Source: Acidobacteriota bacterium
Lineage (GTDB): Bacteria; Acidobacteriota; JAAYUB01
Reading direction: 5' to 3'
DNA: 64,000 bases
Assembly (NCBI GenBank): GCA_018001935.1
Contig: JAGNHB010000003.1
Location: 120,975-184,974 of the forward strand
Below are positions 7,140-61,965 of the stretch, in pieces (the first letter of the stretch is position 1; every line of letters starts with the position of its first letter). The notes beneath the pieces were generated by a model. The model did no database searches. It was given only the letters and a program-made list of their open reading frames with translations, and had not been told where the DNA came from. The position numbers and the translations under genes are program-made.

Positions 7140-8546
7140 CTAGTGGGCGCGGTGCGCGCCCGGACGGGAAGCCGGCCGGGCGACCAGGGCGGTGGCCAGG
7201 ACGGCGAGGCCGAAGAGGACCCCGGCCAGGGCCGCCCGGTGGTAACCGGTGAGGACGAGGGCCGCCGGGGCCGCGGTGTTTGCCGCCCCCGCCGGGAAGG
7301 GGGAGGAGAAGACGGCCTCGAAGAGGCAGACCCCCAGCGTGGACCCGAGGAAGGTGAAGAGAGCGTTGGCGGCCGACACGATCCCCTCCTCGCCGGGGGG
7401 CGCGAGGTTCATGACCAGGGTGGACACCGCGGCGAAGAACGCCCCCAGGGCGGCCCCGTAGAGGGCCAGCGCCGCGATGACGACCCCGTAGCCCGTTCCG
7501 GATCCGAACAGGAGGAAAAGGGCCGTCGAAGCCACCATGGCGGCGGCGGACAGGATGCAGACCCGGCGGGGCCCCACCCGGTCCACCCAGGCCCCGAGGA
7601 AGGGCCCCAGGACGGCCGAGACAGCGGGGAAGACGATGAGGAGCAACCCGATGCGGTCGGGCGTCAGGCCGCGGACGCCGTCGAAATAGAAGGGAAACAG
7701 GAAGCTGTAGCCGTCCAGGAGCAGGGTCGAGGTCAGGGTCCCGAGCAGGGCGGCCGTCAGGTTGCGATCGGAGAAGATCCGCAGGTTCAGGACCGGCGAC
7801 GGCGCCCTGCGCTCGCGGACCACGAAGAGGACCCCGGCCAGGAGGGCGACGGCCGCGGACCCCAAGGCGCCGTGCCCGACCCACCCGTAGTCCTGGGCGG
7901 TGTTGATGCAGTAAATGAAGGCCCCGAGGGCGACGAAGCTGAGCGCCGCCCCGGCGAGATCGAAGCTTTTCCGTTCGCCGTCGCCGGCCCGGTCCCGGGG
8001 GAGGCCCAGCCAGGCCAGCAGGGCGCCCGCCACGCCGGCGGGGACATTGACGAAGAAGACCCAGCGCCAGTCGAGGTAGTGAAGAAGGAACCCGCCCACG
8101 GGGGCCCCCAGGGCGACCCCGACGCTGCCGAAGACGGCCAGGATGCCGAACGCCCGCCCCCGCACCGCCTCCGGCAGGTGCTGAACCACCACGGCGTTGG
8201 CGGTGGCGAAGATCATGGCGCCGCCCACGCCCTGCAGGAAGCGGAAGGCGCAGAGGGCCGGGAGGCCGGGGGCGAAGCCGCACGCCAGGGACCCCAGGGT
8301 GAACAGGACGTACCCCGACCCAAGGACCGTCCGGCTCCCCCAGCGGTCGGCCAGCTTCCCGAAGGTTGGCAGGAAGGCGCACAACGCGAGGAGGTAGAGC
8401 AGGACGGCCCAGCTCACGGCGCCGGTCTCGACCCCGAAGACGCGCGAGAGCGTGGGGAGGGCGATGTAGACGATGGTGGCGTCCAGGTTGGCCATGAAGA
8501 TGGCCATGGAGACGGTGAGCACGACGCGGCGGAAACTCAAGGGCAC
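7140..8546 (-). CDS. MFS transporter (DHA/drug-H+ antiporter-like, ~14 TM)
   Basis: ORF-track 468 aa, highly hydrophobic with repeated GxLaDrxGrr-like MFS signatures (FGKLADRWGSR; GAWVDRVGPRR); stop TAG 7140-7142 overlaps SD of downstream NRPS start (GTG 7130). Confidence 0.85.
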   Translation of the reverse strand: MPLSFRRVVLTVSMAIFMANLDATIVYIALPTLSRVFGVETGAVSWAVLLYLLALCAFLPTFGKLADRWGSRTVLGSGYVLFTLGSLACGFAPGLPALCAFRFLQGVGGAMIFATANAVVVQHLPEAVRGRAFGILAVFGSVGVALGAPVGGFLLHYLDWRWVFFVNVPAGVAGALLAWLGLPRDRAGDGERKSFDLAGAALSFVALGAFIYCINTAQDYGWVGHGALGSAAVALLAGVLFVVRERRAPSPVLNLRIFSDRNLTAALLGTLTSTLLLDGYSFLFPFYFDGVRGLTPDRIGLLLIVFPAVSAVLGPFLGAWVDRVGPRRVCILSAAAMVASTALFLLFGSGTGYGVVIAALALYGAALGAFFAAVSTLVMNLAPPGEEGIVSAANALFTFLGSTLGVCLFEAVFSSPFPAGAANTAAPAALVLTGYHRAALAGVLFGLAVLATALVARPASRPGAHRAH

Positions 8547-45485: not shown

Positions 45486-46382
45486 TTAACGCGTCTGAAA
45501 CCAGAAAGAAGCCCCGTTGAAGATCGGCTCCCTCCCGACGGCCTCCCCGAAGACCGCCTGCATGGCGGCCGCGCGGGTGCGCGACATGAAGTGGGTGGCG
45601 AAGACCACCTCGCACCGCGGGTTGCCGGCCAGGAAGGCGTGGAGGAGGTACTGCTCGGTGTAGAACATCCGCACGTAGACGTCGGGGTAGTCGAAGGGGA
45701 TGAACACGTCGTGAACGTGCACCAGCACGCCGGGGGGAAGGGACGGGAGGACCCGGCAGTAGAGGAAAGGCAGGTCCCCGCCCCGGCGGCAGACGTGGCT
45801 GGAGTCGATGAACAGCAGGGTCCCCGGGCCAGGGAGGTCGGCCAGGAGCGAGCTGTCCTCCACCCGCCGGTACTCGACGGCGTGGGCGAGGTTTTCGACG
45901 GCGCGACGGGGGGCGGGGTCGATGACCCGGATCTTCGACGGGAGCCCCAGGTGGTCAACGGCCGCCCGGGCGACGGCGGTGCTGTAGCCCGACCCCACCT
46001 CGGTGACGGCCGTCGGCCGGAACCACCGGATCATGGCAGCGTAGAGCTCGGCGTCGGGGGTGGGGTAGAACCCGTTGTGAATCAGGCCGCGGGCGGCGTA
46101 GTCGACCCCCCGGAAGCCGGGGTTGATGCCGGGGTCGCCCCGCAGCCGCGCGAAGAGGCGGCGGCAGTCGTCGTCCCCGAGCGGGCCGAGAAAGGCCGCC
46201 ATCTTCTCCGCGTCGAGGAGGAGGCCCTCGTCGCCCGACCGGTACCGGGGGGCCAGGCCGTCCTCCTCCCGGAACCCGGGGGGGATCAGTTCGGACCGGA
46301 GGGTGTCCAGGAGGCGGAGGTCCGCTTTCGACAGGAAGCGCAGGCCGGTTTTGCGGGCGATACGGTTCCAGGTGCTGCTCAC
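45486..46382 (-). CDS. Class I SAM-dependent methyltransferase (O-methyltransferase-like)
   Basis: In ORF 45486..46643, whose N-terminal ~85 aa run through the repeat element and tRNA region and are not genic; probable GTG start 46382; VTEVGSGYSTAVARAAVDHLG (SAM motif I-like), LLFIDSSHV. Confidence 0.55.
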   Translation of the reverse strand: MSSTWNRIARKTGLRFLSKADLRLLDTLRSELIPPGFREEDGLAPRYRSGDEGLLLDAEKMAAFLGPLGDDDCRRLFARLRGDPGINPGFRGVDYAARGLIHNGFYPTPDAELYAAMIRWFRPTAVTEVGSGYSTAVARAAVDHLGLPSKIRVIDPAPRRAVENLAHAVEYRRVEDSSLLADLPGPGTLLFIDSSHVCRRGGDLPFLYCRVLPSLPPGVLVHVHDVFIPFDYPDVYVRMFYTEQYLLHAFLAGNPRCEVVFATHFMSRTRAAAMQAVFGEAVGREPIFNGASFWFQTR

Positions 46383-46394
46383 GTTTGATGCTCC

Positions 46395-46530
46395 CGCAAT
46401 CAGTCGCCAACTGGATATTTCCCGCGAAAAACGCCAATTGACGCGAATAACGAATACAACTAAATGAAAGGACTTGTGATATTCCGATTCGCGAAGATTC
46501 GCGGGTGTAAACAGACTTTTTTCACGGCCG
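46395..46530. repeat. Copy C of the GATTCGCG-rich palindromic intergenic element
   Basis: AGTCGCCAACTGGATATTTCCCGCGAAAAACGCC...TTCCGATTCGCGAAGATTCGCGGG...GACTTTTTTCACGG aligns with copies A and B. Confidence 0.7.
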
Positions 46531-46544
46531 CCCTCTTCGAGGCC

Positions 46545-46585
46545 CCCTAAAAAACGGGGCCGGCGCACGCGGCGCCGGCCCGGGG
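46545..46585 (-). terminator. Rho-independent terminator downstream of tRNA-Ser (minus strand)
   Basis: Minus strand: GGCCGGCGCCGCGTGCGCCGGCC hairpin then CCGTTTTTTAGGGGG. Confidence 0.7.
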
Positions 46586-46675
<90 letters not shown>

Positions 46676-47014: not shown

Positions 47015-47863
47015 CTAAGCACGGAACGCCTTCGTCACGAGCACGGCGAGGAGGACGAGGGTGCACAGCGTGGAGATCAGGGCGAAGAAGGTGACGCCGG
47101 TGAGGAGCCGCAAGCGGGTGAGGGAGTGCGGGAGGACCGGAACGCGACGGCCGGGAAGGCGGGGAAGGGCCTGCCACTGGTGCCGGACGCTGCGCCAGGC
47201 GGCCAGGGACCACAGCACGAAGGTGGCCAGCCACCCCAGGAGGGCGGGGGTTTTCCCACGGGCGCCGCTGCTCAGGGACATGCCGAAAATTGCGCAGAGC
47301 GGCGCGAGGATCAGAACCCCGAGCAATTGAACGGTGGGGTCGGCAAGCATCCGGGAACGCCGCCGCCGGCCCGCTCGGACCGGCCGGGATTGAGCGGCCG
47401 TCCCGCCGGAGGGCGGTTCGGGGATGCCGCCCGCCGGCGGCGGTGCGAGCCCGGGCAGGGGGGGGGCCGGGGGCGAGAGAGGCGGCGGGGCAGGCGCTTC
47501 GCCCGGGACCCCGTTCCGTTGCAGCACTCGTTTTCGAACGGCCAGGAACTTCAGGCGGTAACGACAGACCGGGCAGAACCAGTCGAGCGCGAGGGTGGGA
47601 TTTTCGGCTGGCCCGATCAGCTGCTCCTCGGTGAGATCCATCTCCCGGGAGGGCGGAAATCCCCAGTAATCCGGGAAGAAAGAGCCAAAGTCGGCGTCAC
47701 AGAAGTCGCAGAGCACCATCCGCTCGCCGGGGAAAACCTCGTACTCGGCGTAGGTGTGCGCACCCTGGCGGAACTCGTCCAGCTCGCGCGGCGCATGGCC
47801 GCAGACGAAGCAGGGCGCCATCTCCCGCCGCTCCATCTCCGACCGGCAGATCGGGCAGTGCAT
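47015..47863 (-). CDS. Hypothetical zinc-ribbon membrane protein
   Basis: In ORF 47015..47965; probable ATG start near 47863 after GGAGGAA; N-terminal CPICRSEM...CFVCGH and CDFCDADF...CPVCRYRL Cys pairs, Pro-rich linker, two C-terminal TM helices. Confidence 0.4.
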   Translation of the reverse strand: MHCPICRSEMERREMAPCFVCGHAPRELDEFRQGAHTYAEYEVFPGERMVLCDFCDADFGSFFPDYWGFPPSREMDLTEEQLIGPAENPTLALDWFCPVCRYRLKFLAVRKRVLQRNGVPGEAPAPPPLSPPAPPLPGLAPPPAGGIPEPPSGGTAAQSRPVRAGRRRRSRMLADPTVQLLGVLILAPLCAIFGMSLSSGARGKTPALLGWLATFVLWSLAAWRSVRHQWQALPRLPGRRVPVLPHSLTRLRLLTGVTFFALISTLCTLVLLAVLVTKAFRA

Positions 47864-47983
47864 GGGTTCCTCCGCCGGGTCCCGGCTTCTCCGGGACTCG
47901 CGGCCTGTTGTACCTGAATCCGCTGCCTGTTGGCCAGAGAAAACCAACGAAGGCGACCCCGACACCCGACGCCCCGGTTCCCG

Positions 47984-49288
47984 TCATTCCGACAGGAGCC
48001 AGTCGACGGCGGAATGGACCTTCACCCCGGCCGGGGTCTCCTTCACCGCTTCGGGAAAGAGGGTCACGAGGCGGAGACCGGCAGCGGGCAATTCCCGCGC
48101 ACCGGCCGAAAGGGCCCGCAGCTCTCTGTCAACCGTCCCGGGGTCGTCCGGGTCGGCGCAGACCTGGATCAGTTCCTGGCGTCCGTCGGGAAACCGGGCC
48201 AGGAAATCGACTTCGTACCCTTCGGGCGATTTGGCGTACGCCAGTTCGGCGCCTCGTCGATCGAGCGACAACAGTACGGCCGTCTCGAGGGCGTGCCCGA
48301 TGTTCGCGCGTCCGGACCGGTCGAAAACAGGGATGAGCCCCGGGTCGATGGGATACACCTTGCGCGGGTTCACCCTGCGCTGGCGTTCGGACGTGGAGGC
48401 GATGCCGATCGTCCGGACCAGGAAGGCGTCCTCCAAATGGGCTAAAAACGCGTGCAGCGTGTCTTTCCCAACGGAGATGCCCTGCGAACGCATGTCGTTG
48501 GCGTACTTGTTGATGCTGAAAAGTCCCGCGGCGTTGCCCAGGAGTTGCCGCGTCAACCAGCGAAGCGCGGTGGGTTGTGAAACGGCGTGGCGCTCCACCA
48601 CGTCCCGGAACAGGGCCACGTCCACGTACCCCCGGAGGAGCTCGAAACGGTCCCGCCCCGTCAGGCCCTGCGCTTCGGGGAACCCTCCCGAAGCGAGATA
48701 GGCCGGAAGCTTGTGGTTCAGCGACGACAGCACGGCCTTGGACAGACGTTCCGTCCCGGCCTCGGGCTCTTTCCCGTGATGGCGCAGGTACTCGCGGAAG
48801 CTGAAGGGGTGAACGAGGGCCTCCATGGACCGCCCCCGCATGCTCGTCGCCACCTCGCGACTGAGGAGGCGCGCCGAGGAGCCGGAGAGGAACAGTTCGA
48901 TGTTCTCGGTGTCCAGGAGCCGACGGACGAAGGTCTCCCAGCCCGGCACCGCCTGGACCTCGTCGAGACAGAAGAGGGTCCGGTCCCGGTCCCTTCCCTC
49001 GGGATACAACCGGAAGAATTCATCCGCCACCCAGTGGAGATCGTCGGCCGTCATCCCCGCCAGGCGGTCGTCCTCGAAGTTGAAGAGGAGTGTCCGCTCC
49101 CGGCCGGCGCCCTGCCGGGCGCGATCGGCGATGACTTGCCAGAGAAAGCAGGTCTTTCCCGTGCGCCGCATTCCGATGACCGCGATCGCCTTGCCCGGGA
49201 CGACCGGGAGATGGACGTCCCGTCGGGTGATCCCCGGGAAAGGCGCCTCCTGGAAATCGATGATCTTTTGTCGGACGATGTTGCGCAT
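47984..49288 (-). CDS. AAA-family ATPase with DUF4143-type C-terminal domain (COG1373-like)
   Basis: 434 aa; Walker A GMRRTGKTC, Walker B LFCLDEVQ; family typical of ATPase plus DUF4143 proteins. Confidence 0.7.
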   Translation of the reverse strand: MRNIVRQKIIDFQEAPFPGITRRDVHLPVVPGKAIAVIGMRRTGKTCFLWQVIADRARQGAGRERTLLFNFEDDRLAGMTADDLHWVADEFFRLYPEGRDRDRTLFCLDEVQAVPGWETFVRRLLDTENIELFLSGSSARLLSREVATSMRGRSMEALVHPFSFREYLRHHGKEPEAGTERLSKAVLSSLNHKLPAYLASGGFPEAQGLTGRDRFELLRGYVDVALFRDVVERHAVSQPTALRWLTRQLLGNAAGLFSINKYANDMRSQGISVGKDTLHAFLAHLEDAFLVRTIGIASTSERQRRVNPRKVYPIDPGLIPVFDRSGRANIGHALETAVLLSLDRRGAELAYAKSPEGYEVDFLARFPDGRQELIQVCADPDDPGTVDRELRALSAGARELPAAGLRLVTLFPEAVKETPAGVKVHSAVDWLLSE

Positions 49289-49683: not shown

Positions 49684-52600
49684 ATGAAAAAGCCGGGGCG
49701 CCCGCCTTGCACCCTGAATATGTTGAGGATGGCCGTACTCTGCCTGTTGTCGACCCTGGCGGGGCCCTGCGCCCTCCTCGCCCTCGACCCCCACCGGGCG
49801 GTCACCCAGTACATCCTGGAGACCTGGACCAGCGAGAACGGCCTGCCCCAGAACACCGTGCACCGGATCCTGCAGACCCGGGACGGCTTCCTCTGGATCG
49901 GCACCGAGAGCGGGCTGGTCCGCTTCGACGGGATCGAGTTCAGGCTCTTCAACCGGGCCAACACGCCCGCCCTGAGCCGCAACAGCATCCAGGGCCTGTA
50001 CGAGGACCGCAAGGGGACCTTGTGGGTCGGCAACGACGGCGGCGCCTGCTGTTACGCCGCGGGGCGTTTTTTCGACACGCCCGCCACGGTGCAGCTCCGG
50101 GACAAGCCCGTCACGTCCTTTTTCGAGGACGCGACGGGCACCCTGTGGGCGGTGGGGCGGCACGCGGTCTACCGTCTCCGCTCGCTGTCGGCCCAGGCCT
50201 TCCCCGTCCCCATGCGGTTGACGTCGACCTCCCTCCACCAGCGGCAGGCGGTCAACGTCCTTTTCGAGAACGACGGGGGAGTGCTCTTCGCGGGCACCAA
50301 CACGGGGCTTTTCCGCCTGGAGGGCGGGCGGTTCCGGCCGGAACCCGGCTTCGAGACGACTCCGGTGCGCATGGCCTTCCGCGACCGGTCGGGGACCCTC
50401 TGGATGGTGTCGGGCGGCGGCAACTGGCACCGGGTCGCCAGGGGCGGTTTCGAGCCCGTGGTCCGCCCCGGCGGCGAGGGCCTGTCGCCCGGCTCCTTCA
50501 TCAGCGCCGTGGTGGAGGACCGGGACGCCAACCTCTGGGTGGGCACGGCCCGGGACGGGATCCGGCGGATCCACGGGGGGGCCCTGGCCCGCCTGACCGG
50601 GCAGGAGGGGCTCAACGACAACTTCATTCGCTGCCTGTACGAGGACCGGGAGGGGAGCCTCTGGATCGGGACCCACGGCGGGGGCCTGACCCGCCTCAAG
50701 GACGGGAAGCTCTCGGTCCTGGGCCGCCCGGAGGGGCTGCCGGACGAAATGACCTGGTGCGCCCTGGAAAGCCGTTCCGGTCACCTCTGGGTCGGCTCCG
50801 AGGGCGGGCTCACCCGGTTCGACGGCAGCCGGTGCGAGACCTTCGACCTTTCGCGGGGCCTGTCCAACAACAGCGTCCACTGCCTGTACGAGGACCCCGC
50901 CAGGACACTCTGGATCGGCACCTGGAGCGGTGGGCTCAACCGGATGGAAACGGGGGGGAGAATCACCCCGGTGGTGCTTCCCGGCCTGTCCTCCGGCGAG
51001 ATCCTCTCGTGCATCGTGCCCTCCCGGGACGGCTCCCTATGGATCGGCACGCGCGGCGGGGGACTCAAGCGCCTGCGGGACGGGGTCATACAGGCCTGGA
51101 CGACCCGAAACGGCCTCTCCTCCAACGATGTCCTGGCGGTGGCGGAGGACCGGGACGGGACCCTCTGGGTCGCCACCGACGACGGGTTCGACCGCTTGGC
51201 CGACGGCCAGGTCCGACCGGTCGGTCAGGAACCCTGGAAACTGCACCTGCGGAGCCTCTTCCTCGACCGGGAGGGCACCCTGTGGGCCGGGACGAACCAG
51301 TACGGCCTGGTGGGCATCCGCGACGGCCAGGCGCGCGTCTACGGCGCCGCCCAGGGCTTCACCGAGGACCCGGTCACGGCCATCATCGACAACGCGGCGG
51401 GGGATACGCTCTGGGTGTCCACCTTCAACGGGATTCATGCGGTGCTGCGGAAAGACCTCGACGCCCTCGACGCGGGGCTGCTCTCCCGACTCCCCTGCCG
51501 GGTCTTCGGCCCCGCGGACGGGATGCGTAACCGCGAGTGCAACGGCCTGTCCCACCCCCCGGCCTGCCGGTACCGCCTGGGCCGGCTCTGGTTCCCCTCG
51601 GTTTCGGGCGTGGTGATCGTGGACGAGCGCTTCATGAAGCGCAACCCGGTGCCGCCGCCCGTCTCCATCGAGACCGTCACCGTGGACGGGGAGCACCACC
51701 CGGCGGAGGGCACGCCGGAGTACCCCCCCGGCGTGGGGTCCCTCGAGTTCCACTACACCGCCCTGAGCCTGCTGTGGCCTCACCAGGTGCGCTTCAAGTA
51801 CCGCCTCGAGGGGTACGACGCCGGGTGGGTCGACCCGGGGGCCCGCCGGGACGCCTACTACACCAACCTGCCGCCGGGCCGGTACACCTTCCGGGTCATC
51901 GCCTGCAACAACGACGGGGTGTGGAACCAGGCGGGGGCGGCCTTCTCCTTCTACCTCCGGCCGCGGTTCCACCAGACCGTGGGGTTCCAGGCGCTGGTGG
52001 TTCTCGCCCTTGCGCTGGGCGCCTGGGGGATGCTCCACCTGCGGGTCCGCCACCTCAAGGCCCGCAAACGGGAGCTGGAGGAGCGGGTGACGGAGCGCAC
52101 CGAACAACTGGCCGAGGCCAACCGGAAACTCCAGGAACTGGACCGGATGAAGACGGACTTCCTGAACATGGCGGCCCACGAACTCCGGACCCCGCTCACC
52201 TCCGTGGTGGGCTTCGCCAAGATCGTCCGGAAAAAGCAGGAGGAACTGCTGGCGCTGGTCCCCGGGATCGAGGCCGCCCGCAACCCGCGCAGCCTGGCCC
52301 AGGTCCGGGGCAACATGGACATCATCGTCTCGGAGGGGGAGCGCCTGACCCACCTCATCAACGACCTTCTGGACATCGCCAAGCTGGAGGCCGGCAAGAT
52401 CGAGTGGCGCATGGAGCGGCTCGAGGTCGGGGAACTGGTGCGCCACGCCGTGGAGTCCACCTCGTCCCTGTTCGAGCAGTACCGCCTGTCCGCGGAAGAG
52501 CGGGTGGACCCCGGCCTGCCCGCGGTCCGGGGGGACCGCGAACGCCTGTTGCAGGTCCTGCTCAACCTCCTCTCGAACGCCGTGAAATTCACGCGGGAAG

Positions 52601-53019
52601 GGGAGCGGGTCACCGTGGAAGCCCGCCTGGCGCATGAGCGGGTGGAAAAGGCGGCGGCCGGCCCGCCCGGGACCGTCTTTTCCGAAAGCGGCGGCGGGGA
52701 GCCCCCCGACGAGGCCGGCGGGAACGGGCGCCGCCGGGTGGTGGTGTCCGTCCGTGACCGGGGCGTCGGCATCGCCCCCGAGGACCTTCCCGCCGTTTTC
52801 GAGAAGTTCACCCAGCTGGGCCCGAACCGGGAGGGCGTTTTGCGGGGCACCGGGCTCGGCCTCACCATCAGCCGCCAGATCGTCGAGCACCACGGCGGCC
52901 GGATCTGGGTGGACAGCACTCCCGGGCTGGGAAGCGTCTTCTCGTTCTCCCTCCCGATCGAGACGGAACCCGGGCCGACCGGCTTGCCTGACCCCGGCAT
53001 CGCGGCACAAGAGAGGTAA
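49684..53019 (+). CDS. Sensor histidine kinase with periplasmic two-component-regulator propeller (Reg_prop x about 13) + Y_Y_Y sensor domain; no receiver domain
   Basis: 1111 aa; signal peptide; repeated LW[IV]GT..GL.R motifs; Y_Y_Y YRLEGYDAGWVDPGARRDAYYTNLPPGRYTFRV; TM ALVVLALALGAWGMLHL; HisKA H-box MAAHELRTPLTSV; HATPase_c (N, G1, G2 boxes ...GTGLGLTISRQIVEHHGGRIW). Confidence 0.9.
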   Translation: MKKPGRPPCTLNMLRMAVLCLLSTLAGPCALLALDPHRAVTQYILETWTSENGLPQNTVHRILQTRDGFLWIGTESGLVRFDGIEFRLFNRANTPALSRNSIQGLYEDRKGTLWVGNDGGACCYAAGRFFDTPATVQLRDKPVTSFFEDATGTLWAVGRHAVYRLRSLSAQAFPVPMRLTSTSLHQRQAVNVLFENDGGVLFAGTNTGLFRLEGGRFRPEPGFETTPVRMAFRDRSGTLWMVSGGGNWHRVARGGFEPVVRPGGEGLSPGSFISAVVEDRDANLWVGTARDGIRRIHGGALARLTGQEGLNDNFIRCLYEDREGSLWIGTHGGGLTRLKDGKLSVLGRPEGLPDEMTWCALESRSGHLWVGSEGGLTRFDGSRCETFDLSRGLSNNSVHCLYEDPARTLWIGTWSGGLNRMETGGRITPVVLPGLSSGEILSCIVPSRDGSLWIGTRGGGLKRLRDGVIQAWTTRNGLSSNDVLAVAEDRDGTLWVATDDGFDRLADGQVRPVGQEPWKLHLRSLFLDREGTLWAGTNQYGLVGIRDGQARVYGAAQGFTEDPVTAIIDNAAGDTLWVSTFNGIHAVLRKDLDALDAGLLSRLPCRVFGPADGMRNRECNGLSHPPACRYRLGRLWFPSVSGVVIVDERFMKRNPVPPPVSIETVTVDGEHHPAEGTPEYPPGVGSLEFHYTALSLLWPHQVRFKYRLEGYDAGWVDPGARRDAYYTNLPPGRYTFRVIACNNDGVWNQAGAAFSFYLRPRFHQTVGFQALVVLALALGAWGMLHLRVRHLKARKRELEERVTERTEQLAEANRKLQELDRMKTDFLNMAAHELRTPLTSVVGFAKIVRKKQEELLALVPGIEAARNPRSLAQVRGNMDIIVSEGERLTHLINDLLDIAKLEAGKIEWRMERLEVGELVRHAVESTSSLFEQYRLSAEERVDPGLPAVRGDRERLLQVLLNLLSNAVKFTREGERVTVEARLAHERVEKAAAGPPGTVFSESGGGEPPDEAGGNGRRRVVVSVRDRGVGIAPEDLPAVFEKFTQLGPNREGVLRGTGLGLTISRQIVEHHGGRIWVDSTPGLGSVFSFSLPIETEPGPTGLPDPGIAAQER

Positions 53020-53023
53020 ACCA

Positions 53024-55624
53024 ATGACAAACCTTGACATCCTGCTCGTCCGAACCCTCGTTCGGACCCGTGGCCCGGCCTGTTTCCCATGGGTGCTTCT
53101 CCTGGTTGCCGGGCTCGGCGGTCTGGCGGGGGCCCAGGTCCCCGTCGGGCGGATCGACCTCCCGGGCAGGGACCTCGGCGGGGTCCTGGTTCATGCCCCG
53201 ACCGGCCGGGTCTGCGTGTACAATGCCACGGACGCGAAGGTCCACCTGTTCGACGGGCTCACGCTGGGAGCGGTGGCGACGGTTTCCGACGTCGGGTCCA
53301 TGAACGGGATGCTGCTTCACCAGGGGGCCGGCCGCCTTTTCATCAGTTCCATGGCCGGCCGGGAGGTCACCGTCGTCGACCTCGCGTCCGCCCAGGTGGT
53401 CGGTCGGGTTCCCACGACCCAGTATCACCTGATGGCCCTGGACGAGACCGCGGGGTACCTTCTCCTGCTCGATGAAAACCACCTTCAGCGCATCGACGTG
53501 AACAGCCTGTCGATTTCCTTTCTCGAAGGCCTGACGGCCAACGTCTTCTACATGGACCTGGCCGTCAACCCGGCGACCCATGAACTGTTCATCGGCAACG
53601 CGCTGTCCGGTTACCTGGAAGTGGTGGACATCCTCAGCTTCGCCCGGTCCAGCCTGACCTACGACGGCGTGCGCAGCTGCGGGCCGGCGGTCGGCATAAA
53701 CCCACTGCGAAACAAGGTTTGTATCTCGACCGGCATGGGGGTCCATGTCCCTTTCATCCTGTTCGACCGTGCGGCCGGAAGCTCCCGGCTGCTGTACGCG
53801 GACAACGACAACCTCCGCTTCTTCTATCACCCGGGGATGGACGCCCTGTTCACCTCGGTGGAAGTGAACAATATCTGCACCATCCTGCGGGGAGCGGACG
53901 ACGCCTTCTTCAACCTCCCCATGCAGGGGCCGATCCTCAACCTGGCCTTCAGCCCGTCCACCGGTCACGTCTACTTCGCCGGCGCGTCCTTCCTGGGCTT
54001 TTACGACCCCTCGAGCGACTTCCTGGCGTTGATTCCCCCCGAGGGGACCCCCCCGGGGGGCGCCGCCGTGTTCGAAGCGGATGCCGGCGCGGCGCCGTCC
54101 CCGGCCATGGCGCCGACCCCCTCGACGGCCCCGGCCGCCGACCCTCCCGAGTTGGACCTGGACCCCGTCACGGGCCGGGTCTTCTTTCTCCGGAACAACG
54201 CCGTGCACGTCTTCCAGGACACCGACGCCCCCGTTCGCCCCCCCTTGATCATCCTGGATTCGCACTACTCCATCTGGGACCCCGTCAGCCGCACGCTGAG
54301 GTCGACGCGAACCGGTTCGGAGGGGTTCGGCAACGGGTCGGCGGTTCGCCCGGGCACCGGCCGGGTCTACATCCCCGAACAGGCCTGGGGCCGTGTCGGG
54401 ATCTACACCGGGTGCGGCCCTTACGCCCGCATCGGTTACCTTCCCTGCGGCGGCCAGGGCCCCTCGACCCTGGCGTTCGCCCCCGACGGCTCCCGCCTGT
54501 ACGTGGTCAACGAGAATTCCGACAGCGTGGGCGTCATCGACCCGGACCAGGGGACCGTCATCGCCGCCATCCCCGTGGGGGACCTTCCCGCGGGGATCGC
54601 CGTGCACCCGGACGGTACGCGTGTCTACGTCGCCAACAACTGGGGAAAGTCCGTGTCGGTGATCGACACCCGTTCCCTGGGCGTGACGGCCACCATCTCC
54701 ACCGCCCCGCCCGGCCAGCCCTACGCCGGGTACCCGCGCGGCGTGGCCGTCACCCGGGGCGGCGCCCGGGTCCTGGTGGTCAACGAAAACCCCTCCTCGC
54801 TGGCGGTCATCGACACGAAAACCAACACCAAGCTCGGCCACGTCTCCCTGGGGGGAAGTGCCAGCTCCCAGCACCCGTCCTGGATCGCCCTCACGCCCGA
54901 CGGGGAAACCGCCTACATCACCAATCTCTTTTCCAACACCGTCTCCGTGGTGGACGTCAAGGGGCTGACGCTCAAGAGCACCCTGACGGTCGGGACGAAC
55001 CCGACCCACCTGGCAGTTCTTCCGGACGCCAGTGAAGTGTGGGTCTACAACGAAAACTACGCCGGGCTTCCCTCGCTTTCCATCGTCAAGCACCCCGAAG
55101 GAACCGTCGCCGCCCTGACCCCTTACACCAACCACTGGATCGGCCAGGGATTCGCCGCCCCCGACCCCTACAGCCGCGTCCAGGGCCTGGTGGAAACCGC
55201 GCAGGGGCCGGCGACGGCCGCCGCGGTCCGCCTTTCCCCCCGAGTCGGGGCCGACCGGACGGTGAACACCGACCTTCGGGGGGAATACGCCCTGGCCGGA
55301 TTGCCCGTCGGTGCCGGGGATGTCCGGGTGACCCTGCCGGGGCACACCGCCCGGAACCACTTCGACCTCACCCTCGGTCTCGGGAGGACCCTTTTCTTCC
55401 CCGACAAGCTCTCCGTGCAACCGCTCCCGGGCGACCTCGACGAAACCGGGGAGGTTGGGCTCGCCGACCTGGTCCTGATGGACCTTTACCTGGCCGGGAA
55501 CCTCACCCCGGGGCAGGGTCGTTTCACCGCCCCGCTTCAGGCCGGGGACCTCAACGGCGACGGATTGCTGAACGCCGCGGACCGGGGCTTGCTGGCCGAC
55601 CGGCTCAGTGCCTCCGGGAATTGA
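53024..55624 (+). CDS. Secreted YVTN-family beta-propeller repeat protein with CarboxypepD_reg-like domain and C-terminal dockerin-like module
   Basis: In ORF 52634..55624 frame; ATG 53024 (AGAGAGG SD) 5 nt after the HK stop; signal peptide; repeated ...LYVVNENSDSVGVIDPDQGTVIAAIPVG..P.GIAV.PDG.RVYVAN... units; C-terminus GDLDETGEVGLADLVLMDLYLAGN...GDLNGDGLLNAADRGLLADRL = duplicated Ca-binding dockerin-type loops. Confidence 0.7.
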   Translation: MTNLDILLVRTLVRTRGPACFPWVLLLVAGLGGLAGAQVPVGRIDLPGRDLGGVLVHAPTGRVCVYNATDAKVHLFDGLTLGAVATVSDVGSMNGMLLHQGAGRLFISSMAGREVTVVDLASAQVVGRVPTTQYHLMALDETAGYLLLLDENHLQRIDVNSLSISFLEGLTANVFYMDLAVNPATHELFIGNALSGYLEVVDILSFARSSLTYDGVRSCGPAVGINPLRNKVCISTGMGVHVPFILFDRAAGSSRLLYADNDNLRFFYHPGMDALFTSVEVNNICTILRGADDAFFNLPMQGPILNLAFSPSTGHVYFAGASFLGFYDPSSDFLALIPPEGTPPGGAAVFEADAGAAPSPAMAPTPSTAPAADPPELDLDPVTGRVFFLRNNAVHVFQDTDAPVRPPLIILDSHYSIWDPVSRTLRSTRTGSEGFGNGSAVRPGTGRVYIPEQAWGRVGIYTGCGPYARIGYLPCGGQGPSTLAFAPDGSRLYVVNENSDSVGVIDPDQGTVIAAIPVGDLPAGIAVHPDGTRVYVANNWGKSVSVIDTRSLGVTATISTAPPGQPYAGYPRGVAVTRGGARVLVVNENPSSLAVIDTKTNTKLGHVSLGGSASSQHPSWIALTPDGETAYITNLFSNTVSVVDVKGLTLKSTLTVGTNPTHLAVLPDASEVWVYNENYAGLPSLSIVKHPEGTVAALTPYTNHWIGQGFAAPDPYSRVQGLVETAQGPATAAAVRLSPRVGADRTVNTDLRGEYALAGLPVGAGDVRVTLPGHTARNHFDLTLGLGRTLFFPDKLSVQPLPGDLDETGEVGLADLVLMDLYLAGNLTPGQGRFTAPLQAGDLNGDGLLNAADRGLLADRLSASGN

Positions 55625-55760
55625 AACGGGGCGCCGGGGGCGCTGCGCGAGGCGAACAGCGGGCCCCCGTGGAAAACCGGAAACAAATGCACCGCATTCC
55701 AGTATGATTTAGGGAATCCTCGAGGCCACCGGCCGCCATGTCTTTTTCGTGGAGGAAATC

Positions 55761-56807
55761 GTGGTCAAGAAAAGCAGCCCGTCGGGCACCGACCGCCGGG
55801 ACTTCCTCAAGCAGCTCGCCGCCGCGGGCCTGGTCTTGTGCGTCCTGCCGGGAGAGGCCCTCCCGCGGCCGGAGAATGCGCCCGCCGCGCCCGCCCCCGC
55901 GCCCGCCGCCGGGGCCATCCGGTACCAGTACCGGACCGTCTCGGTGAAGCACCTCCCCGAGCTGGAGGCCTGGTTCACCAAGCTCAAGCAGGAAAAGCGG
56001 ATCAGCGACCACCCCATCTTCCGGAAGTGGATCGACGGCTTCGTCTTCAAGGCCCCCGAGAAGATGCCCGGCGCCCGGTCGCTGGTGGTGACCTCCCTGC
56101 CGCAGAAGATCGGGTCCGTCACCCTCAACCGGGAGGGGAAGCGCTACACGGTGATCGTCGCCCCCGGTTACGTCGATGACGGCATCACCTTCCCGGTGTT
56201 CCAGGAGACGCTGTGCCGTGACGTTTTGAAAAAGCCCGGCTCGCCGCTGATCTTCGCGCGGCTTCCCCTGAAAACCCTCGCGGTCCGCTGCGGCCTGGCG
56301 GAGTACGGCCGGAACAACGTGACCTACGTCAAGGGGTACGGCAGCTTCCACCAGCTGCTCGCCTTTTACACCGAGGTGGAGTTGCCGGACCAGTGGCGGC
56401 CGCTCAAGCAGATGGCCGTCTGCAAACGGTGCGGTCTCTGCTCCGACACCTGCCCGACGAAGGCGATCCGCAAGCCGGAGTTCGTCATCGACGCCGGTAA
56501 GTGCATCTCGCTCTACAACGAGATCCCCGATCCCATGCCCGACTGGATCGACCCCAAGGCGCACAACGCCCTGGCGGGGTGCATGAAGTGCCAGTACCAG
56601 TGCCTCGGGAACCGCGGGCTGACCGGCGACGTGGACAACGTCGGGGAACTGACCGAAGCCGAAACCGGCCTGCTGCTGGAAGAGCGGCGGGACGCGGCGA
56701 TGGAGGCGGTCATCATCGAGAAGCTGAAGCGGCTGCCCATCGTGAAGAACATCCCCTACGTCTCGCGGAACCTGAAGCTGGCCTTCGCCAACTGCACGCC
56801 GATGTGA
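55761..56807 (+). CDS. Tat-exported 4Fe-4S cluster protein of the QueG / reductive-dehalogenase-like fold
   Basis: In ORF 55749..56807; better start GTG 55761 (GGAGGAA SD 4 nt upstream); twin-arginine motif DRRDFLKQLAAAGLVL; CKRCGLCSDTCP (CxxCxxCxxxCP) + CMKCQYQC (CxxCxxxC) ferredoxin motifs as in RdhA/QueG C-termini. Confidence 0.65.
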   Translation: MVKKSSPSGTDRRDFLKQLAAAGLVLCVLPGEALPRPENAPAAPAPAPAAGAIRYQYRTVSVKHLPELEAWFTKLKQEKRISDHPIFRKWIDGFVFKAPEKMPGARSLVVTSLPQKIGSVTLNREGKRYTVIVAPGYVDDGITFPVFQETLCRDVLKKPGSPLIFARLPLKTLAVRCGLAEYGRNNVTYVKGYGSFHQLLAFYTEVELPDQWRPLKQMAVCKRCGLCSDTCPTKAIRKPEFVIDAGKCISLYNEIPDPMPDWIDPKAHNALAGCMKCQYQCLGNRGLTGDVDNVGELTEAETGLLLEERRDAAMEAVIIEKLKRLPIVKNIPYVSRNLKLAFANCTPM

Positions 56808-56817
56808 GGGCGGGAAG

Positions 56818-56868
56818 GTTATCGCGCCAAAGGACGAAAGGACCCAAAGGACCAAAACGACCCAAAGG
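56818..56868. repeat. Solo octamer array (AAAGGACN)n arm plus conserved core start (third locus; no inverted partner)
   Basis: CCAAAGGACGAAAGGACCCAAAGGACCAAAACGACCCAAAGGACGGAGAGCGCGAAAAGGGTCGGGG; the post-array GGACGGAGAG.GCG..GGGT.GGGG matches locus 59676-59740. Confidence 0.7.
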
Positions 56869-57061
56869 ACGGAGAGCGCGAAAAGGGTCGGGGAAGCGAA
56901 AGGCCACGGGGGCATGCGCCGCCCCGGTTCCCAAAGACGACCCGCTCCCCGGTGGAGATTCGACATTGGTAACGGGGGCGGCCGCCCGGAAACCCGTCAG
57001 CGCCGCGCGCGTGAGCAAGCGATTAAAGATCTGACCTTTACCACTCCCTCACGGTCGTGGC

Positions 57062-59515
57062 TCAGATGTTGCAGCGGTTGTGCAGGACCGTCACGAGGTC
57101 CCGGGCGGTCACCCGGCCGTCGCCGTCCACATCGCCGCAGAACCAGCCGCAGGGGAGCTCCCACAGCCTCCCGGAAAGATAGGCGGCCAGCAGGAGCACG
57201 TCCTGGGCGTCCACCACGCCGTCACCGCTCAGGTCGCAGCCCGCCGGGTCGTCGTTGTCCGTGATGGTGCAGTGACTGGTTGAATCGGCGATGGTGGCGT
57301 TGACGGGGTTGTGGACATTCAGGACGAAGTTTTCGTCGCTCTCGTCGAGGGTGTCGCCCTTCACCGCCACGGTGACGGTTTTCGACGTCTGGCCGGGCGT
57401 GAAGGTGAGGGTCTGGGTGAGCGCCGTGTAATCGTCCGGCTGCACGGCGGTCCCGTCGGAGGTGTACACCTCCGCGCTGACCGTCTTCCCGGAGGCGGCC
57501 AGCAGGTTCACCGTGAAGACGGCGTTCACCGTCGCCCCGTCCCCCTCCGTGACCGTGATGTCCGTCCCCATCATGAGGACCGCCTGCGGATCGTTGTCGT
57601 TGATGGTGCAGACTCCCTGGGCGTCCCCCAGGGGGGCGTTGACGGGGTTGGACAGGTCGACCCGGAAGGTCTCGTTGTCCTCGTCCAGCGTGTCGCCCGC
57701 GACCGGCACTTTCACCGCCTGGGCGAACTGCCCCGGCGCGAAGCTCAGGGTCCCCGAGCCCGCGGTGTAATCGGACGGCTGCAGGGCCGTCCCGTTCGCG
57801 GTGGCCCAGTCCACCGTGACGGTGTTGGGGCTGGTGGCCGCCAGGGTCACCACGAAGGTGGCGTCCTGCGTCCCCGCGTCCGTTTCCGTCACCGTGACGT
57901 CCCCGATGGAGACGGTCGGGGGCCCGTCGTCGTCGAGGATGGTGCAGCGGGTCGTGGAGTCCGCGATCGTGGCGTTGACGGCGTTGCGCACGTTCAGGTC
58001 GAAGGTCTCGTCGTATTCGTCCTTGTAATCCCCGGTGACGCTCACCGGGACTTGCTTGCTGGTCTCCCCCGGGCTGAACGTCAGGGTCTGGACGAGGGCG
58101 GTGTAGTCGTACCCGTGAAGGGCCGTGCCGTCGGTCGTGTAGACCTCCGCCGTCACCGTCCGCCCCGACGGGCTCAGCAGGTTGACGGTGAAGGACGCGA
58201 CGGCCGTCTCCCCGCCGGCGCCTTCCGTCACCGAGAGGTCCGTGCCCATCATGATCACCGCCAGGGGGTCGTTGTCGGTGATGGCGCACGTCCCCCGGCC
58301 GGTCCCGATCTCCGCGTTGACGGGGCCCGACAGGTCGAGGTGGAAGACCTCGTTGTCCTCGTCCAGGGTGTCCCCTTTCACCGCGACGGTCACCGTTCTG
58401 GTGGACTGGCCCGGGGTGAAGGTCAGCGGCCCCGACGCCGCCGTGTAATCCGCCGGCGAGACCGCCGTGCCGTTGACCGTGGCGTAGTTCGCCGTCACCG
58501 TGTTCGAGGAGGTCGGCGACAGGGTCACCGTGAAGGAGGCGTTGACGGTGCCGCTGTCCCCCTCGGAGACCGTCACGTCGCTCACGTACAGTTTCGAGGT
58601 CCCATCGTCGTCGGTGATGGTCCCCACGCCCTGGGCATCCGTGATCTGGGCCCCGGAAGCCCCCGACAGGTTGACGAGAAACGTCTCGTCGCTCTCGCTC
58701 ACGGTGTCGCCGTTGACGGCGACGGACACCGTCTTGCTCCCGTCGCCGGCGCTGTAGGTCAGGGTCCCGGAGCCGCTGGCGTAGTCGCCGGGCTGGCCGG
58801 CCGTCCCGTTGGCCGTGGCCCAGTTCACGGTGACGGTCTGCCCGGTGCCCGGCGCGGGGCTGCAGCTCACCGTGAACACGGCGCTGGTCGTGCCCGAGTT
58901 CCCCTCCTTGACGGACACGTCGCTGAGGGAAAGCTCGGGGCGGTACACCGTCACCCGGACCTGGAACGTCCCGCTGTTGGGCGTGCTGGCGCAATCGTTG
59001 ACGCCCAGGTACAGGGTCTTGTTCGCCGTCACGTTGAAGCTCGCCCCGCCGGAACCGATGAACGTCCTCGCCGAGTTCAGCATCATGTAGAGCCCGGCAT
59101 GGCCGTTGCCGGGGAGGGGGTCCGCGCAGTAGTCGTCGCAGTCGTAGCAGATGGCCTGGTTCATGGGGTCGTCGTAGATGGCCCGGGGCAGCCCGTCGGG
59201 GTCGACGATGTAGTCTGTCGGGTTGCACGGCTTGCACTGGGGATCCGTGGAGTTGTTGAAGCAGACGTAACCCGAGATGCTGTCCACGACCACGCGGTCG
59301 CCGGCCACCAGGCTGCAGACGAGGCGCTCGTTGCCCGCGATGTCCGTCCCCTGCACGGTGACGTTGTGGATCGTCGTGCCGGCCAGGCACAAGCCCGGGC
59401 CCGGCAGGAGGAGCACGCACAGGAGAACCAAACCGCGACGGGAAACGCCCGGGATCGTCTCGCGGGAAAGGCCGTCTTTTCCCGGCGCCCTTCGCCTGAA
59501 GACGTTTCTTCTCAT
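57062..59515 (-). CDS. Large secreted Calx-beta repeat protein (six Calx-beta domains) with Cys-rich N-terminal domain and C-terminal dockerin-like module
   Basis: 817 aa; ATG 59515 with AGGAGG SD; signal peptide; six approx 100-aa repeats each with DxxE...TxxFxPG...V.V..D...E.DE.F Calx-beta signature (e.g. GDYASGSGTLTYSAGDGSKTVSVAVNGDTVSESDETFLVNLSG); C-terminus CDLSGDGVVDAQDVLLLAAYLSG...GDVDGDGRVTARDLVTVLHNRC (dockerin-type duplicated loops). Confidence 0.75.
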   Translation of the reverse strand: MRRNVFRRRAPGKDGLSRETIPGVSRRGLVLLCVLLLPGPGLCLAGTTIHNVTVQGTDIAGNERLVCSLVAGDRVVVDSISGYVCFNNSTDPQCKPCNPTDYIVDPDGLPRAIYDDPMNQAICYDCDDYCADPLPGNGHAGLYMMLNSARTFIGSGGASFNVTANKTLYLGVNDCASTPNSGTFQVRVTVYRPELSLSDVSVKEGNSGTTSAVFTVSCSPAPGTGQTVTVNWATANGTAGQPGDYASGSGTLTYSAGDGSKTVSVAVNGDTVSESDETFLVNLSGASGAQITDAQGVGTITDDDGTSKLYVSDVTVSEGDSGTVNASFTVTLSPTSSNTVTANYATVNGTAVSPADYTAASGPLTFTPGQSTRTVTVAVKGDTLDEDNEVFHLDLSGPVNAEIGTGRGTCAITDNDPLAVIMMGTDLSVTEGAGGETAVASFTVNLLSPSGRTVTAEVYTTDGTALHGYDYTALVQTLTFSPGETSKQVPVSVTGDYKDEYDETFDLNVRNAVNATIADSTTRCTILDDDGPPTVSIGDVTVTETDAGTQDATFVVTLAATSPNTVTVDWATANGTALQPSDYTAGSGTLSFAPGQFAQAVKVPVAGDTLDEDNETFRVDLSNPVNAPLGDAQGVCTINDNDPQAVLMMGTDITVTEGDGATVNAVFTVNLLAASGKTVSAEVYTSDGTAVQPDDYTALTQTLTFTPGQTSKTVTVAVKGDTLDESDENFVLNVHNPVNATIADSTSHCTITDNDDPAGCDLSGDGVVDAQDVLLLAAYLSGRLWELPCGWFCGDVDGDGRVTARDLVTVLHNRCNI

Positions 59516-60343: not shown

Positions 60344-61648
60344 TCAGAATATCGGGCAGTTGTCGCCCCGGTCGCCCGTCCACAGGATCCTCCCCCAGCG
60401 ATCGACATACTTCCAACAGCCATTCTTCTTGAAAAGACCCACCTCGCCGTCGAAGAATTCCACGGTAGAGTATCGGGGCGGGATCACCCAGCGCCCCTTG
60501 GTGTCGATCAGTCCCCATCGACCCCCGATGCCTTCTTCGACGCTGATAGCATCGCAAACGGAGGGTTCAATCCCACCAATGTTGACCAGAGCGTATCCTT
60601 CCTGGAAACTCTGATGGCCGTGGAACCGCGGGGAGATCAACCACTTCCCTCGAGGGTCCACAACTCCCCAACGACCACTCTGCTTCACCCAGGCCCTGCC
60701 GCCGGAAAAATCTTCCACCTCACTGAATCGAAAGGGGATCCGGAGTTCACCGGAAGGGTCGACACATCCCCATCCCTTTCCGTCCCAAACCCAGGACAGG
60801 CCTTCGTGAAAAAGTCTTGACGCCTTGAATGAGGGGGGGATGACAACCTTTCCTTTGCGATCGACGGTGCCCCATCGACCTTCAGTAAGAACCCACGCGA
60901 AGCCCTCGGAGAAGAGTTCGGCTTCCTGGTATTGCGGGAGAATCGCCCATTGCCCAGTCTGGTTCAGATAACCCCAAAGACCATTTGAACGGACAGCGGC
61001 GAGTTCCTGAAAATATGGTTTTGCAAGGTCGATGTCGGGGGTGTTCAGGACGATCCCTGAAATATGCACAAATCTCGGTATTCCCTGCCTGTCTTTCAGC
61101 AGGCAATAGTCGCCATGCATGAAAAAGTCGACGTTATACACCTGGTACTGCATAGGTATGATGGCCTCGCCACTTTTGTCTATAAAACCGCCACCTTGGG
61201 CTGTGCCCACCCAGGCTCGATTCTTATAGAAAGAGCAGGCGCTCTGAAAACGGGGAGAAATTGGCAGATTCCCAGCTTTGTCCATGAATCCTATCAGACG
61301 ATCGGGTCCTTCAAGGTCGCGAACAATTGACATCCCGTTCAGAAAGCCCATGATCTGATAAGGTTGGGGAGAGATCACCATCCGTCCCGTCCGGTCGATG
61401 GCGCCCCAGAGCTTGCCGACCTTCACCGGGGCCAGCCCTTCGGAAAAGGCGGAGGCCGCGTCGTACGCCAGGGGAATGACCACCCGGCCGGTCCGGTCGA
61501 TGAAGCCGCACTTCCCTTGGTTCCGAACCAGATACAGCTTTTCTTCCGGTGCGGCGCCCGTATCCCCCGCCGCGGGGAGCAGACCGGTGATGGCGTTCAG
61601 GAAGAAGAGGAAGACCAGGGCGAGTGTTTTCATCCTCGACACCTTCAT
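60344..61648 (-). CDS. Secreted WG-containing repeat (KWG) beta-propeller-like protein
   Basis: 434 aa; signal peptide; about 10 repeats of G..D..G...IPP.Y....F..GLA.V...G.WG.ID.KG (e.g. KCGFIDRTGRVVIPLAYDAASAFSEGLAPVKVGKLWGAIDRTG). Confidence 0.6.
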   Translation of the reverse strand: MKVSRMKTLALVFLFFLNAITGLLPAAGDTGAAPEEKLYLVRNQGKCGFIDRTGRVVIPLAYDAASAFSEGLAPVKVGKLWGAIDRTGRMVISPQPYQIMGFLNGMSIVRDLEGPDRLIGFMDKAGNLPISPRFQSACSFYKNRAWVGTAQGGGFIDKSGEAIIPMQYQVYNVDFFMHGDYCLLKDRQGIPRFVHISGIVLNTPDIDLAKPYFQELAAVRSNGLWGYLNQTGQWAILPQYQEAELFSEGFAWVLTEGRWGTVDRKGKVVIPPSFKASRLFHEGLSWVWDGKGWGCVDPSGELRIPFRFSEVEDFSGGRAWVKQSGRWGVVDPRGKWLISPRFHGHQSFQEGYALVNIGGIEPSVCDAISVEEGIGGRWGLIDTKGRWVIPPRYSTVEFFDGEVGLFKKNGCWKYVDRWGRILWTGDRGDNCPIF

Positions 61649-61965
61649 TCCCCTGGGGGGGCGAGGCGAAGTCGGAGGAGCGTCCGGGCCAGCCGGTAGA
61701 TATCGCTCCGGTCGCCTTCTTTCCTCCGCCCGACGGCCACCCCCGTCACGGTGGCGCCCTCGATCCGGTAGAGGATGCGGTATCGCTGACCCGCCGCCCG
61801 GACGCTGCGCAGCCCACGCAGTTCGCCGTGAAGCTCCTTGCCCTGCTGCCCGGGGTTTTCCGCCAGGCGGTCGATGCGCTTGACGAGAAGCCCGCGGACC
61901 CGGCGGTCCTCGATCCGGCGGAGTTGGTCCAGGGCGGTCGGGGTGATCTCGACCGTGTATCTCAC
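61645..61965 (-). CDS. Type II toxin, RelE/ParE family
   Basis: 106 aa; MRYTVEITPTALDQLRRI...GELRGLRSVRAGQRYRILYRIEG..VTGVAVGRRKE (RelE/ParE fold signature, conserved R/Y); 4-nt overlap with upstream antitoxin gene. Confidence 0.7.
   Translation of the reverse strand: MRYTVEITPTALDQLRRIEDRRVRGLLVKRIDRLAENPGQQGKELHGELRGLRSVRAAGQRYRILYRIEGATVTGVAVGRRKEGDRSDIYRLARTLLRLRLAPPGE

Follow-up and report, generated by a model that had tools for sequence, protein, structure and literature searches.

Reg_prop/Y_Y_Y sensors are best known from the hybrid two-component systems of Bacteroides. In these systems (e.g. BT4663 and BT4673) one polypeptide comprises the periplasmic sensor, which is a Reg_prop double propeller with Y_Y_Y, then a transmembrane helix, the kinase domains HisKA and HATPase_c, a receiver and an AraC domain. 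Non-cellulosomal type I dockerins (PF00404) are C-terminal modules of ~60 residues, with two EF-hand-like calcium loops each accompanied by a helix, on secreted proteins that are not glycoside hydrolases; a 2009 review by Peer et al. reportedly covers such dockerins without cohesins from all three domains of life. QueG, which acts on tRNA in the cytoplasm, and RdhA, which bears a twin-arginine (Tat) signal and is accompanied by the rdhB membrane anchor, share the fold of the class III cobalamin enzymes, and YVTN propellers are present in archaeal surface-layer protein (PDB 1l0q). Relatives of all of these lie side by side in an Acidobacteriota bacterium, within the 64,000 nucleotides of contig JAGNHB010000003.1 analysed here (forward-strand positions 120,975 to 184,974; hereafter the window, whose own numbering is used).

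Four genes are at issue, namely those of a sensor histidine kinase, a YVTN-repeat protein, an exported iron-sulfur (Fe-S) protein and a protein with Calx-beta domains, the second and fourth of which end in dockerin-type modules. Open reading frames (ORFs), domains and the evidence for each are as follows.

49684-53019, + strand: ORF of the sensor histidine kinase, NCBI start at 49729 (Pfam domains, hydrophobic segments)
53024-55624, + strand: YVTN protein, 866 aa (TIGR02276, Dockerin_1, AlphaFold)
55427-55621, + strand: dockerin-type module of the YVTN protein (Dockerin_1, 5nrk_B match, motif scan)
55749-56807, + strand: ORF of the Fe-S protein, 348 aa, likely start at 55761 (TAT model, Fer4_16, fold)
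57062-59515, - strand: Calx-beta protein, 817 aa (Calx-beta, Dockerin_1)
58934-59395, - strand: cysteine-rich N-terminal domain of the Calx-beta protein (residues 41-194)
57251-58930, - strand: five Calx-beta domains (Pfam, D[DN]D domain ends)
57065-57262, - strand: dockerin-type module of the Calx-beta protein (Dockerin_1, PDB dockerins)

The kinase, YVTN and Fe-S genes run in the same direction, separated by 4 nt and 136 nt, and the Calx-beta gene is convergent with the Fe-S gene across a gap of 254 nt. All four have coding-type third-position G+C (GC3) of 0.86-0.94 and are recovered by a GC3-based ORF filter. Together they are probably a set of accessory genes for the cell envelope that is specific to the lineage of this uncultured Acidobacterium, and not a dedicated multi-gene machine. 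Each of the four belongs to a known kind, and nothing shows that they work jointly. An identical four-gene arrangement is found in an independent assembly (L011), and a close relative (L001) keeps the order kinase, YVTN, Fe-S with 87% nucleotide identity over 7.2 kb, on a contig that stops short of the Calx-beta position. Apart from that assembly, the kinase-YVTN-Fe-S arrangement was found in this relative only. The preliminary description had proposed a docking system, possibly coupled to a redox enzyme; its parts are sound, both dockerins being real and the Fe-S protein Tat-exported, but the gene set is not conserved, and a dockerin, YVTN or Calx-beta neighbour accompanies the Fe-S family in none of ~127 other lineages. 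Across 171 loci of this family (~2.1 Mb) the dockerin motif occurs in the window's own lineage only. With no dockerin-type neighbour in other lineages, any coupling of dockerins to redox chemistry is lineage-specific at best.

Both C-terminal modules, suspected from the start to be dockerin-like, are true duplicated dockerin-type calcium-binding modules; alignments with solved dockerins and a motif scan agree on this. The module of the YVTN protein contains two calcium loops, DLDETGEVGLAD and DLNGDGLLNAAD, with a Thr at position 5 of the first. Its Dockerin_1 score of 21.9 bits is just under the Pfam cut-off of 22.9, with profile positions 1-56 of 57 covered. Both of its repeats align with those of 5nrk_B, a type I dockerin of solved structure (1.2e-6). 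The module of the Calx-beta protein contains two canonical calcium loops, DLSGDGVVDAQD and DVDGDGRVTARD, scores 29.7 bits, exceeding the same cut-off, and aligns through both repeats with the PDB dockerins 6kg9 (1.3e-5) and 8x39 (2e-9). It differs from PF00404 in four cysteines around the repeats, which are conserved in the homologue P0275 (N-terminal domain 74% identical). The motif scan looked for two tandem segments of ~22 residues, each a 12-residue loop D-x-[DN]-x-[DN]-G-x-[IVL]-x-x-x-D and then a helix. In the six-frame translation of the window this duplicated pattern is found at exactly 2 sites, which are the two C-termini (0 of 200 residue shuffles; 0.0 expected by chance).

As had been remarked, no cohesin is in view: Pfam scanning, which covered ~45 ORFs of the window, gave no Cohesin match. 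A 316-aa protein (47015-47965) and a 434-aa protein (60344-61648) were considered as cohesins and rejected, the first being a zinc-ribbon/membrane protein and the second a WG-repeat protein. Dockerins without a cohesin, which the preliminary description took to suggest a surface docking or assembly system, do not by themselves point to anything new. Such non-cellulosomal dockerins have long been described; an Omnitrophota study (PMC10066038) cites Peer et al. 2009 for dockerins without cohesins and reads them as possible adhesins. The two modules differ from one another in linker length, cysteine content and helix residues, and given the differences in linker and cysteines nothing points to a common partner. 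Both would be ordinary non-cellulosomal dockerins on secreted carriers, and any partner of theirs would have to be encoded beyond the window.

The YVTN protein is comprised of a signal peptide, a divergent beta-propeller (residues 38-337), a Pro/Ala linker, a YVTN beta-propeller (377-700), a CarboxypepD_reg-like beta-sandwich (719-788) and the dockerin. The YVTN repeat TIGR02276 matches in 4 stretches (8e-35), and the CarboxypepD_reg match is sub-threshold; together with Dockerin_1 and 5nrk_B this bears out the initial reading of a YVTN propeller with a duplicated dockerin at its end. An AlphaFold model gives two propellers and a beta-sandwich at a predicted local distance difference test (pLDDT) of 67, a moderate confidence that is due to a shallow alignment. 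The best PDB match of the model is 1l0q, the YVTN and PKD part of the archaeal surface-layer protein. The second propeller shares 26% identity with it at a template modelling (TM) score of 0.67 (target-normalised); in both proteins, each extracellular, a beta-sandwich follows the propeller. The bacterial protein differs in its extra divergent propeller and its dockerin. By this modelled resemblance the YVTN product is probably a surface protein.

Full-length homologues of the YVTN protein are rare, with only four among 5.8 billion proteins. In the distant homologues P0123 and P0124 (30% identity) the alignment extends over the two propellers and the beta-sandwich, and they have as their C-termini a Por_Secre_tail (type IX secretion) in place of the dockerin. 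Since the dockerin thus stands in the slot that in homologues from other phyla is held by a type IX sorting domain, it would most likely be an interchangeable, calcium-dependent tag for surface retention or protein docking. The neighbours of the distant homologues are unrelated, with no kinase alongside. A conserved kinase-YVTN pairing was considered and rejected, the gene upstream of a distant homologue in L009 being unlike the kinase. At the window locus the YVTN gene, which begins 4 nt past the kinase stop codon, is probably co-transcribed with the kinase gene, and its product is probably secreted through the Sec pathway as a double-propeller surface protein.

The kinase is identical to NCBI protein KA419_02605 of 1096 aa, whereas the ORF from 49684 has 1111 aa. 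Pfam finds Reg_prop in 6 stretches (2.5e-55), Y_Y_Y (5e-17), HisKA and HATPase_c, and nothing else. The sensor, a Reg_prop double propeller with Y_Y_Y, spans approximately residues 37-764 of the 1111-aa ORF and is flanked by hydrophobic segments at residues 13-36 and 765-788, the latter a transmembrane helix, so it must be periplasmic. This much is shared with the Bacteroides hybrid systems. In agreement with the preliminary description, the kinase differs from them in lacking both the receiver and the AraC (HTH_18) domain, and it has no DNA-binding domain; it is a classical, non-hybrid kinase. The description had also seen no response regulator nearby. A receiver (REC) profile built from 105 sequences, which gave 18 matches in control loci, found none in the six-frame translation of the window, even with E<=10 allowed, and Response_reg is absent from the Pfam-scanned ORFs. 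A regulator in an uncalled ORF of the window was considered and, on this six-frame search, rejected. With no REC domain over 49 kb upstream and 11 kb downstream, the kinase is locally orphan. Its propeller/Y_Y_Y sensor would bind a periplasmic ligand, with the signal passing to a response regulator encoded elsewhere.

This architecture is ordinary, and non-hybrid Reg_prop kinases are common. Homologues number at least 7980 (7980 of 8000 candidates were significant). Among the best 120 of these, ~43 are likewise non-hybrid proteins of 1000-1100 residues, and in the others the sensor is joined to outputs of the REC/Hpt, GGDEF, HisKA_3, Ser/Thr kinase or cyclase type; an AraC domain is found in none of the 120. 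Of three non-hybrid homologues with neighbourhoods examined, a paralogue in the same species (L172) has a stand-alone receiver 3 nt upstream, a 39%-identical homologue (L173) has an OmpR-type regulator 10 nt downstream, and a non-hybrid homologue from Holophagales (L174) is orphan as well. At the locus of the same-species paralogue (L172 7629-19207) the kinase adjoins a radical SAM/PqqD/ScmC peptide-modification cluster and a giant (>2600 aa) CLIPPER/SdrD_B/Peptidase_C25 protein.

The Fe-S gene most likely starts at the GTG at 55761, behind GGAGGA, which fits the 348-aa length of the identical NCBI protein (P0001). Its product had been called a Tat-exported, QueG/RdhA-like protein, and signal model, cysteines and predicted fold all support this. 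The TAT signal model TIGR01409 gives 21.8 bits against a cut-off of 16.7, and Fer4_16 matches at 1.5e-11. The twin-arginine motif is TDRRDFLK. Both arginines and the eight cysteines for two [4Fe-4S] clusters (C225, C228, C231, C235, C252, C278, C281 and C285, numbered from 55749) are invariant across 63 aligned homologues. In a Foldseek search with the AlphaFold model (pLDDT 89) the top 46 matches were all QueG, PceA or NpRdhA, the best at E 7e-11 over 328 columns. Structures of QueG match over ~325 columns with E ~1e-10 and a TM score of 0.57, followed by PceA and NpRdhA, and a profile of the family matches PDB QueG at 8e-17. The protein scores 62.4 bits with the QueG model TIGR00276 (cut-off 200 bits) and 33.7 bits with the RdhA model TIGR02486 (cut-off 160 bits). 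Since it fails both curated models it is a superfamily member that belongs to neither named family. On its predicted structure it is placed in the QueG/RdhA (class III cobalamin enzyme) superfamily, with cobalamin binding predicted.

Likeness to QueG (PDB 5d08, 5t8y and 5d6s) extends to size, the two-cluster cysteine pattern and a near full-length fold match (TM 0.55-0.57). The differences are an identity of only ~20%, a score that does not reach TIGR00276, and the invariant Tat signal, which implies that the protein acts after export, away from the tRNA of the cytoplasm. With RdhA (PceA, PDB 4uqu and 8q4h) it shares the Tat signal, two [4Fe-4S] motifs and the superfamily fold. Unlike RdhA, it is ~100-150 residues shorter and no RdhB-like anchor gene lies alongside; an adjoining anchor was looked for and rejected, as the 254-nt gap downstream of the Fe-S gene contains no small hydrophobic ORF. 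The product is probably a reductase of the periplasm that carries two [4Fe-4S] clusters and, in all probability, a corrinoid; it would take up these cofactors and fold in the cytoplasm before Tat export. A cobalamin riboswitch or other RNA element was not found by Rfam near the gene; the sole match is a tRNA gene at 46589-46675 (- strand, 57 bits), which overlaps the mechanically called start of a methyltransferase ORF (45486-46643), so that the methyltransferase gene must begin further downstream.

The Fe-S family is widespread: GTDB genomes give at least 579 matches to it and metagenomes at least 504. Removal of duplicates at 80% identity leaves 128 lineages, 35 of them Tat-bearing. Tat-bearing forms are found in Acidobacteriota, Aminicenantes, KSB1, Omnitrophota, Gemmatimonadota and others, and signal-less forms in Asgard archaea (including Lokiarchaeum ossiferum), Bathyarchaeia, Thermoplasmata and Chloroflexota. 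Genes termed rdhA-like have been counted for Acidobacteriota and Asgardarchaeota in metagenome surveys (PMC12219181), and the counts may include this family. In 14 independent loci a Fer4_5 polyferredoxin of ~500 residues is encoded directly downstream of the Tat-bearing gene, as compared with the rdhB anchor that partners RdhA. This polyferredoxin, the commonest partner of the exported forms, is a plausible membrane electron donor and is absent at the window locus; family members elsewhere would usually receive their electrons from it. One locus of the family (L071 11218-14046, - strand) holds a single 942-aa ORF that combines a 2-oxoacid dehydrogenase E1, a transketolase and a Por_Secre_tail. 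A cytoplasmic enzyme with a secretion tag is odd, and this ORF may be a true fusion or an artefact of assembly or ORF calling.

The Calx-beta protein consists of a signal peptide, a cysteine-rich domain (residues 41-194), five Calx-beta domains and the dockerin. Calx-beta (PF03160) matches in 5 stretches (1.7e-79, 264 bits), and five domain ends (D[DN]D) lie at residues 302, 414, 528, 640 and 753. The six domains counted in the preliminary description are therefore five, the remaining part being the separate cysteine-rich domain. This domain (~150 residues) has no Pfam match and is rare, with 39 clusters only among 1.84 billion representatives. The largest matches to it that were scanned with Pfam all carry Calx-beta arrays (8 of 8), some with added FG-GAP or BACON. 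P0275 has Calx-beta domains to the number of six, and its dockerin likewise bears the four cysteines; in relatives more distant than P0275 the C-termini differ. The protein looks like a modular, adhesin-like surface protein. Its gene, on the opposite strand and downstream of a deformylase gene, is separate from the putative kinase operon, and its product would be a surface protein apart from the others, with a dockerin different from that of the YVTN protein.

Three observations weigh against regarding the four genes as simple neighbours. The 4-nt kinase-YVTN junction and the same-strand order of kinase, YVTN and Fe-S genes are kept in L001, which fits one operon and hence some functional link. 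Two dockerin genes stand just 1.8 kb apart, compared with none in the ~2.1 Mb of family loci outside the window's lineage. Finally, Reg_prop/Y_Y_Y sensors occur within 3 kb of a gene of the Fe-S family in four other independent lineages, with the following outputs.

L005 7054-9798: Reg_prop/Y_Y_Y sensor near Fe-S family gene, output GerE
L027 5876-8680: Reg_prop/Y_Y_Y sensor near Fe-S family gene, output GerE
L022 8268-12239: Reg_prop/Y_Y_Y sensor near Fe-S family gene, output REC+AraC
L071 7813-8838: Reg_prop/Y_Y_Y sensor near Fe-S family gene, output SpoIIE

The last of these observations could mean that the sensor detects the substrate of the reductase or a related compound and induces a kinase-YVTN-Fe-S operon through an unlinked regulator, the dockerin proteins being incidental or accessory. 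The shared strand and short gaps of the three genes fit such control, and within the Tat-bearing lineages all four sensor hits fall in the near zone (4 of 4, binomial p = 0.025). This amounts to just 4 of 35 Tat-bearing lineages, and over all lineages, with one or two hits farther off, the value is p = 0.09. A second, independent metagenome set adds near the gene only duplicates of lineages already seen, plus one or two distant hits, and so weakens the statistic to p = 0.09. In addition, such sensors are abundant in these phyla, the p-values are not set against their background density in the genomes, and what most often neighbours the Fe-S gene is the polyferredoxin, not a sensor. The association of sensor and reductase is suggestive but not established, and control of the reductase by the kinase at this locus seems unlikely.

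A different account takes the dockerin-like modules as partner-less, i.e. as small calcium-binding tails that stabilise unrelated secreted proteins or bind polysaccharide or envelope. The Calx-beta dockerin scores about equally with calmodulin EF-hands and with dockerins. Many organisms also reportedly have dockerins and no cohesins (Peer et al. 2009). Both modules nevertheless keep the full two-repeat layout of dockerins and match solved cohesin-binding dockerins over both repeats, which makes this account quite unlikely.

Likewise quite unlikely is a true non-cellulosomal cohesin-dockerin surface assembly of the kind proposed in the preliminary description, in which a scaffold with cohesins, encoded elsewhere, would receive the YVTN and Calx-beta proteins, and these would capture substrate for the periplasmic reductase under control of the kinase: the nearness of two true dockerins found nowhere else in the window or the 171 other loci, the secretion and binding-type folds of both carriers and the position of the dockerin, where orthologues have a surface-sorting domain, speak for it, but there is no cohesin in 64 kb, the two dockerins are unlike, the Calx-beta gene is convergent and transcribed as a unit by itself, no other lineage links the Fe-S family to dockerin proteins, and at this locus no electron donor is encoded next to the reductase.

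The setting of the genes is a mixed one. Housekeeping genes (Obg-like GTPase, DnaJ, PrmA and peptide deformylase) surround the four, and accessory genes (an AAA_14/DUF4143 ATPase, a WG-repeat protein, a ParE toxin and a TonB-dependent receptor) are interspersed among them. L001 has no counterpart of the AAA_14/DUF4143 ATPase gene (47984-49288, - strand) that lies immediately ahead of the kinase gene, which indicates a recent insertion or deletion; in L001 the homologue of the 316-aa gene abuts the kinase. G+C content is 61-74% per 2-kb window and mostly ~68%. Promoter and terminator scans gave nothing above chance (3 terminator-like sites against 7.6 expected). The WG-repeat protein (60344-61648, - strand) is secreted, has 6 repeats (2e-81) and adjoins the ParE-type toxin gene (61645-61965, - strand). 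At the low-numbered end a large non-ribosomal peptide synthetase gene (3-7130, - strand), with two condensation/adenylation/carrier modules and a terminal reductase domain, runs past the end of the window and is adjoined by an MFS transporter gene (7140-8546, - strand).

For the locus itself, the analysis mostly corrects annotation: an attractive-looking cluster is probably a lineage-specific neighbourhood of known parts. It is a bolder and rather improbable thought that in this lineage dockerins have replaced the type IX C-terminal domain as surface tag, with the adjacent kinase controlling the displayed proteins and a periplasmic corrinoid reductase in a sensor-reductase pairing that recurs in four further lineages. 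If dockerins did take over from the type IX tag, this would be cohesin-dockerin surface display in a non-cellulolytic diderm bacterium. That one and the same double-propeller protein ends in a dockerin or in a type IX sorting domain, depending on the phylum, supports the view of non-cellulosomal dockerins as interchangeable surface tags. The Fe-S family is very large and uncharacterised, with a QueG-like fold, and biochemistry on one member would give a function to a protein found in hundreds of genomes.

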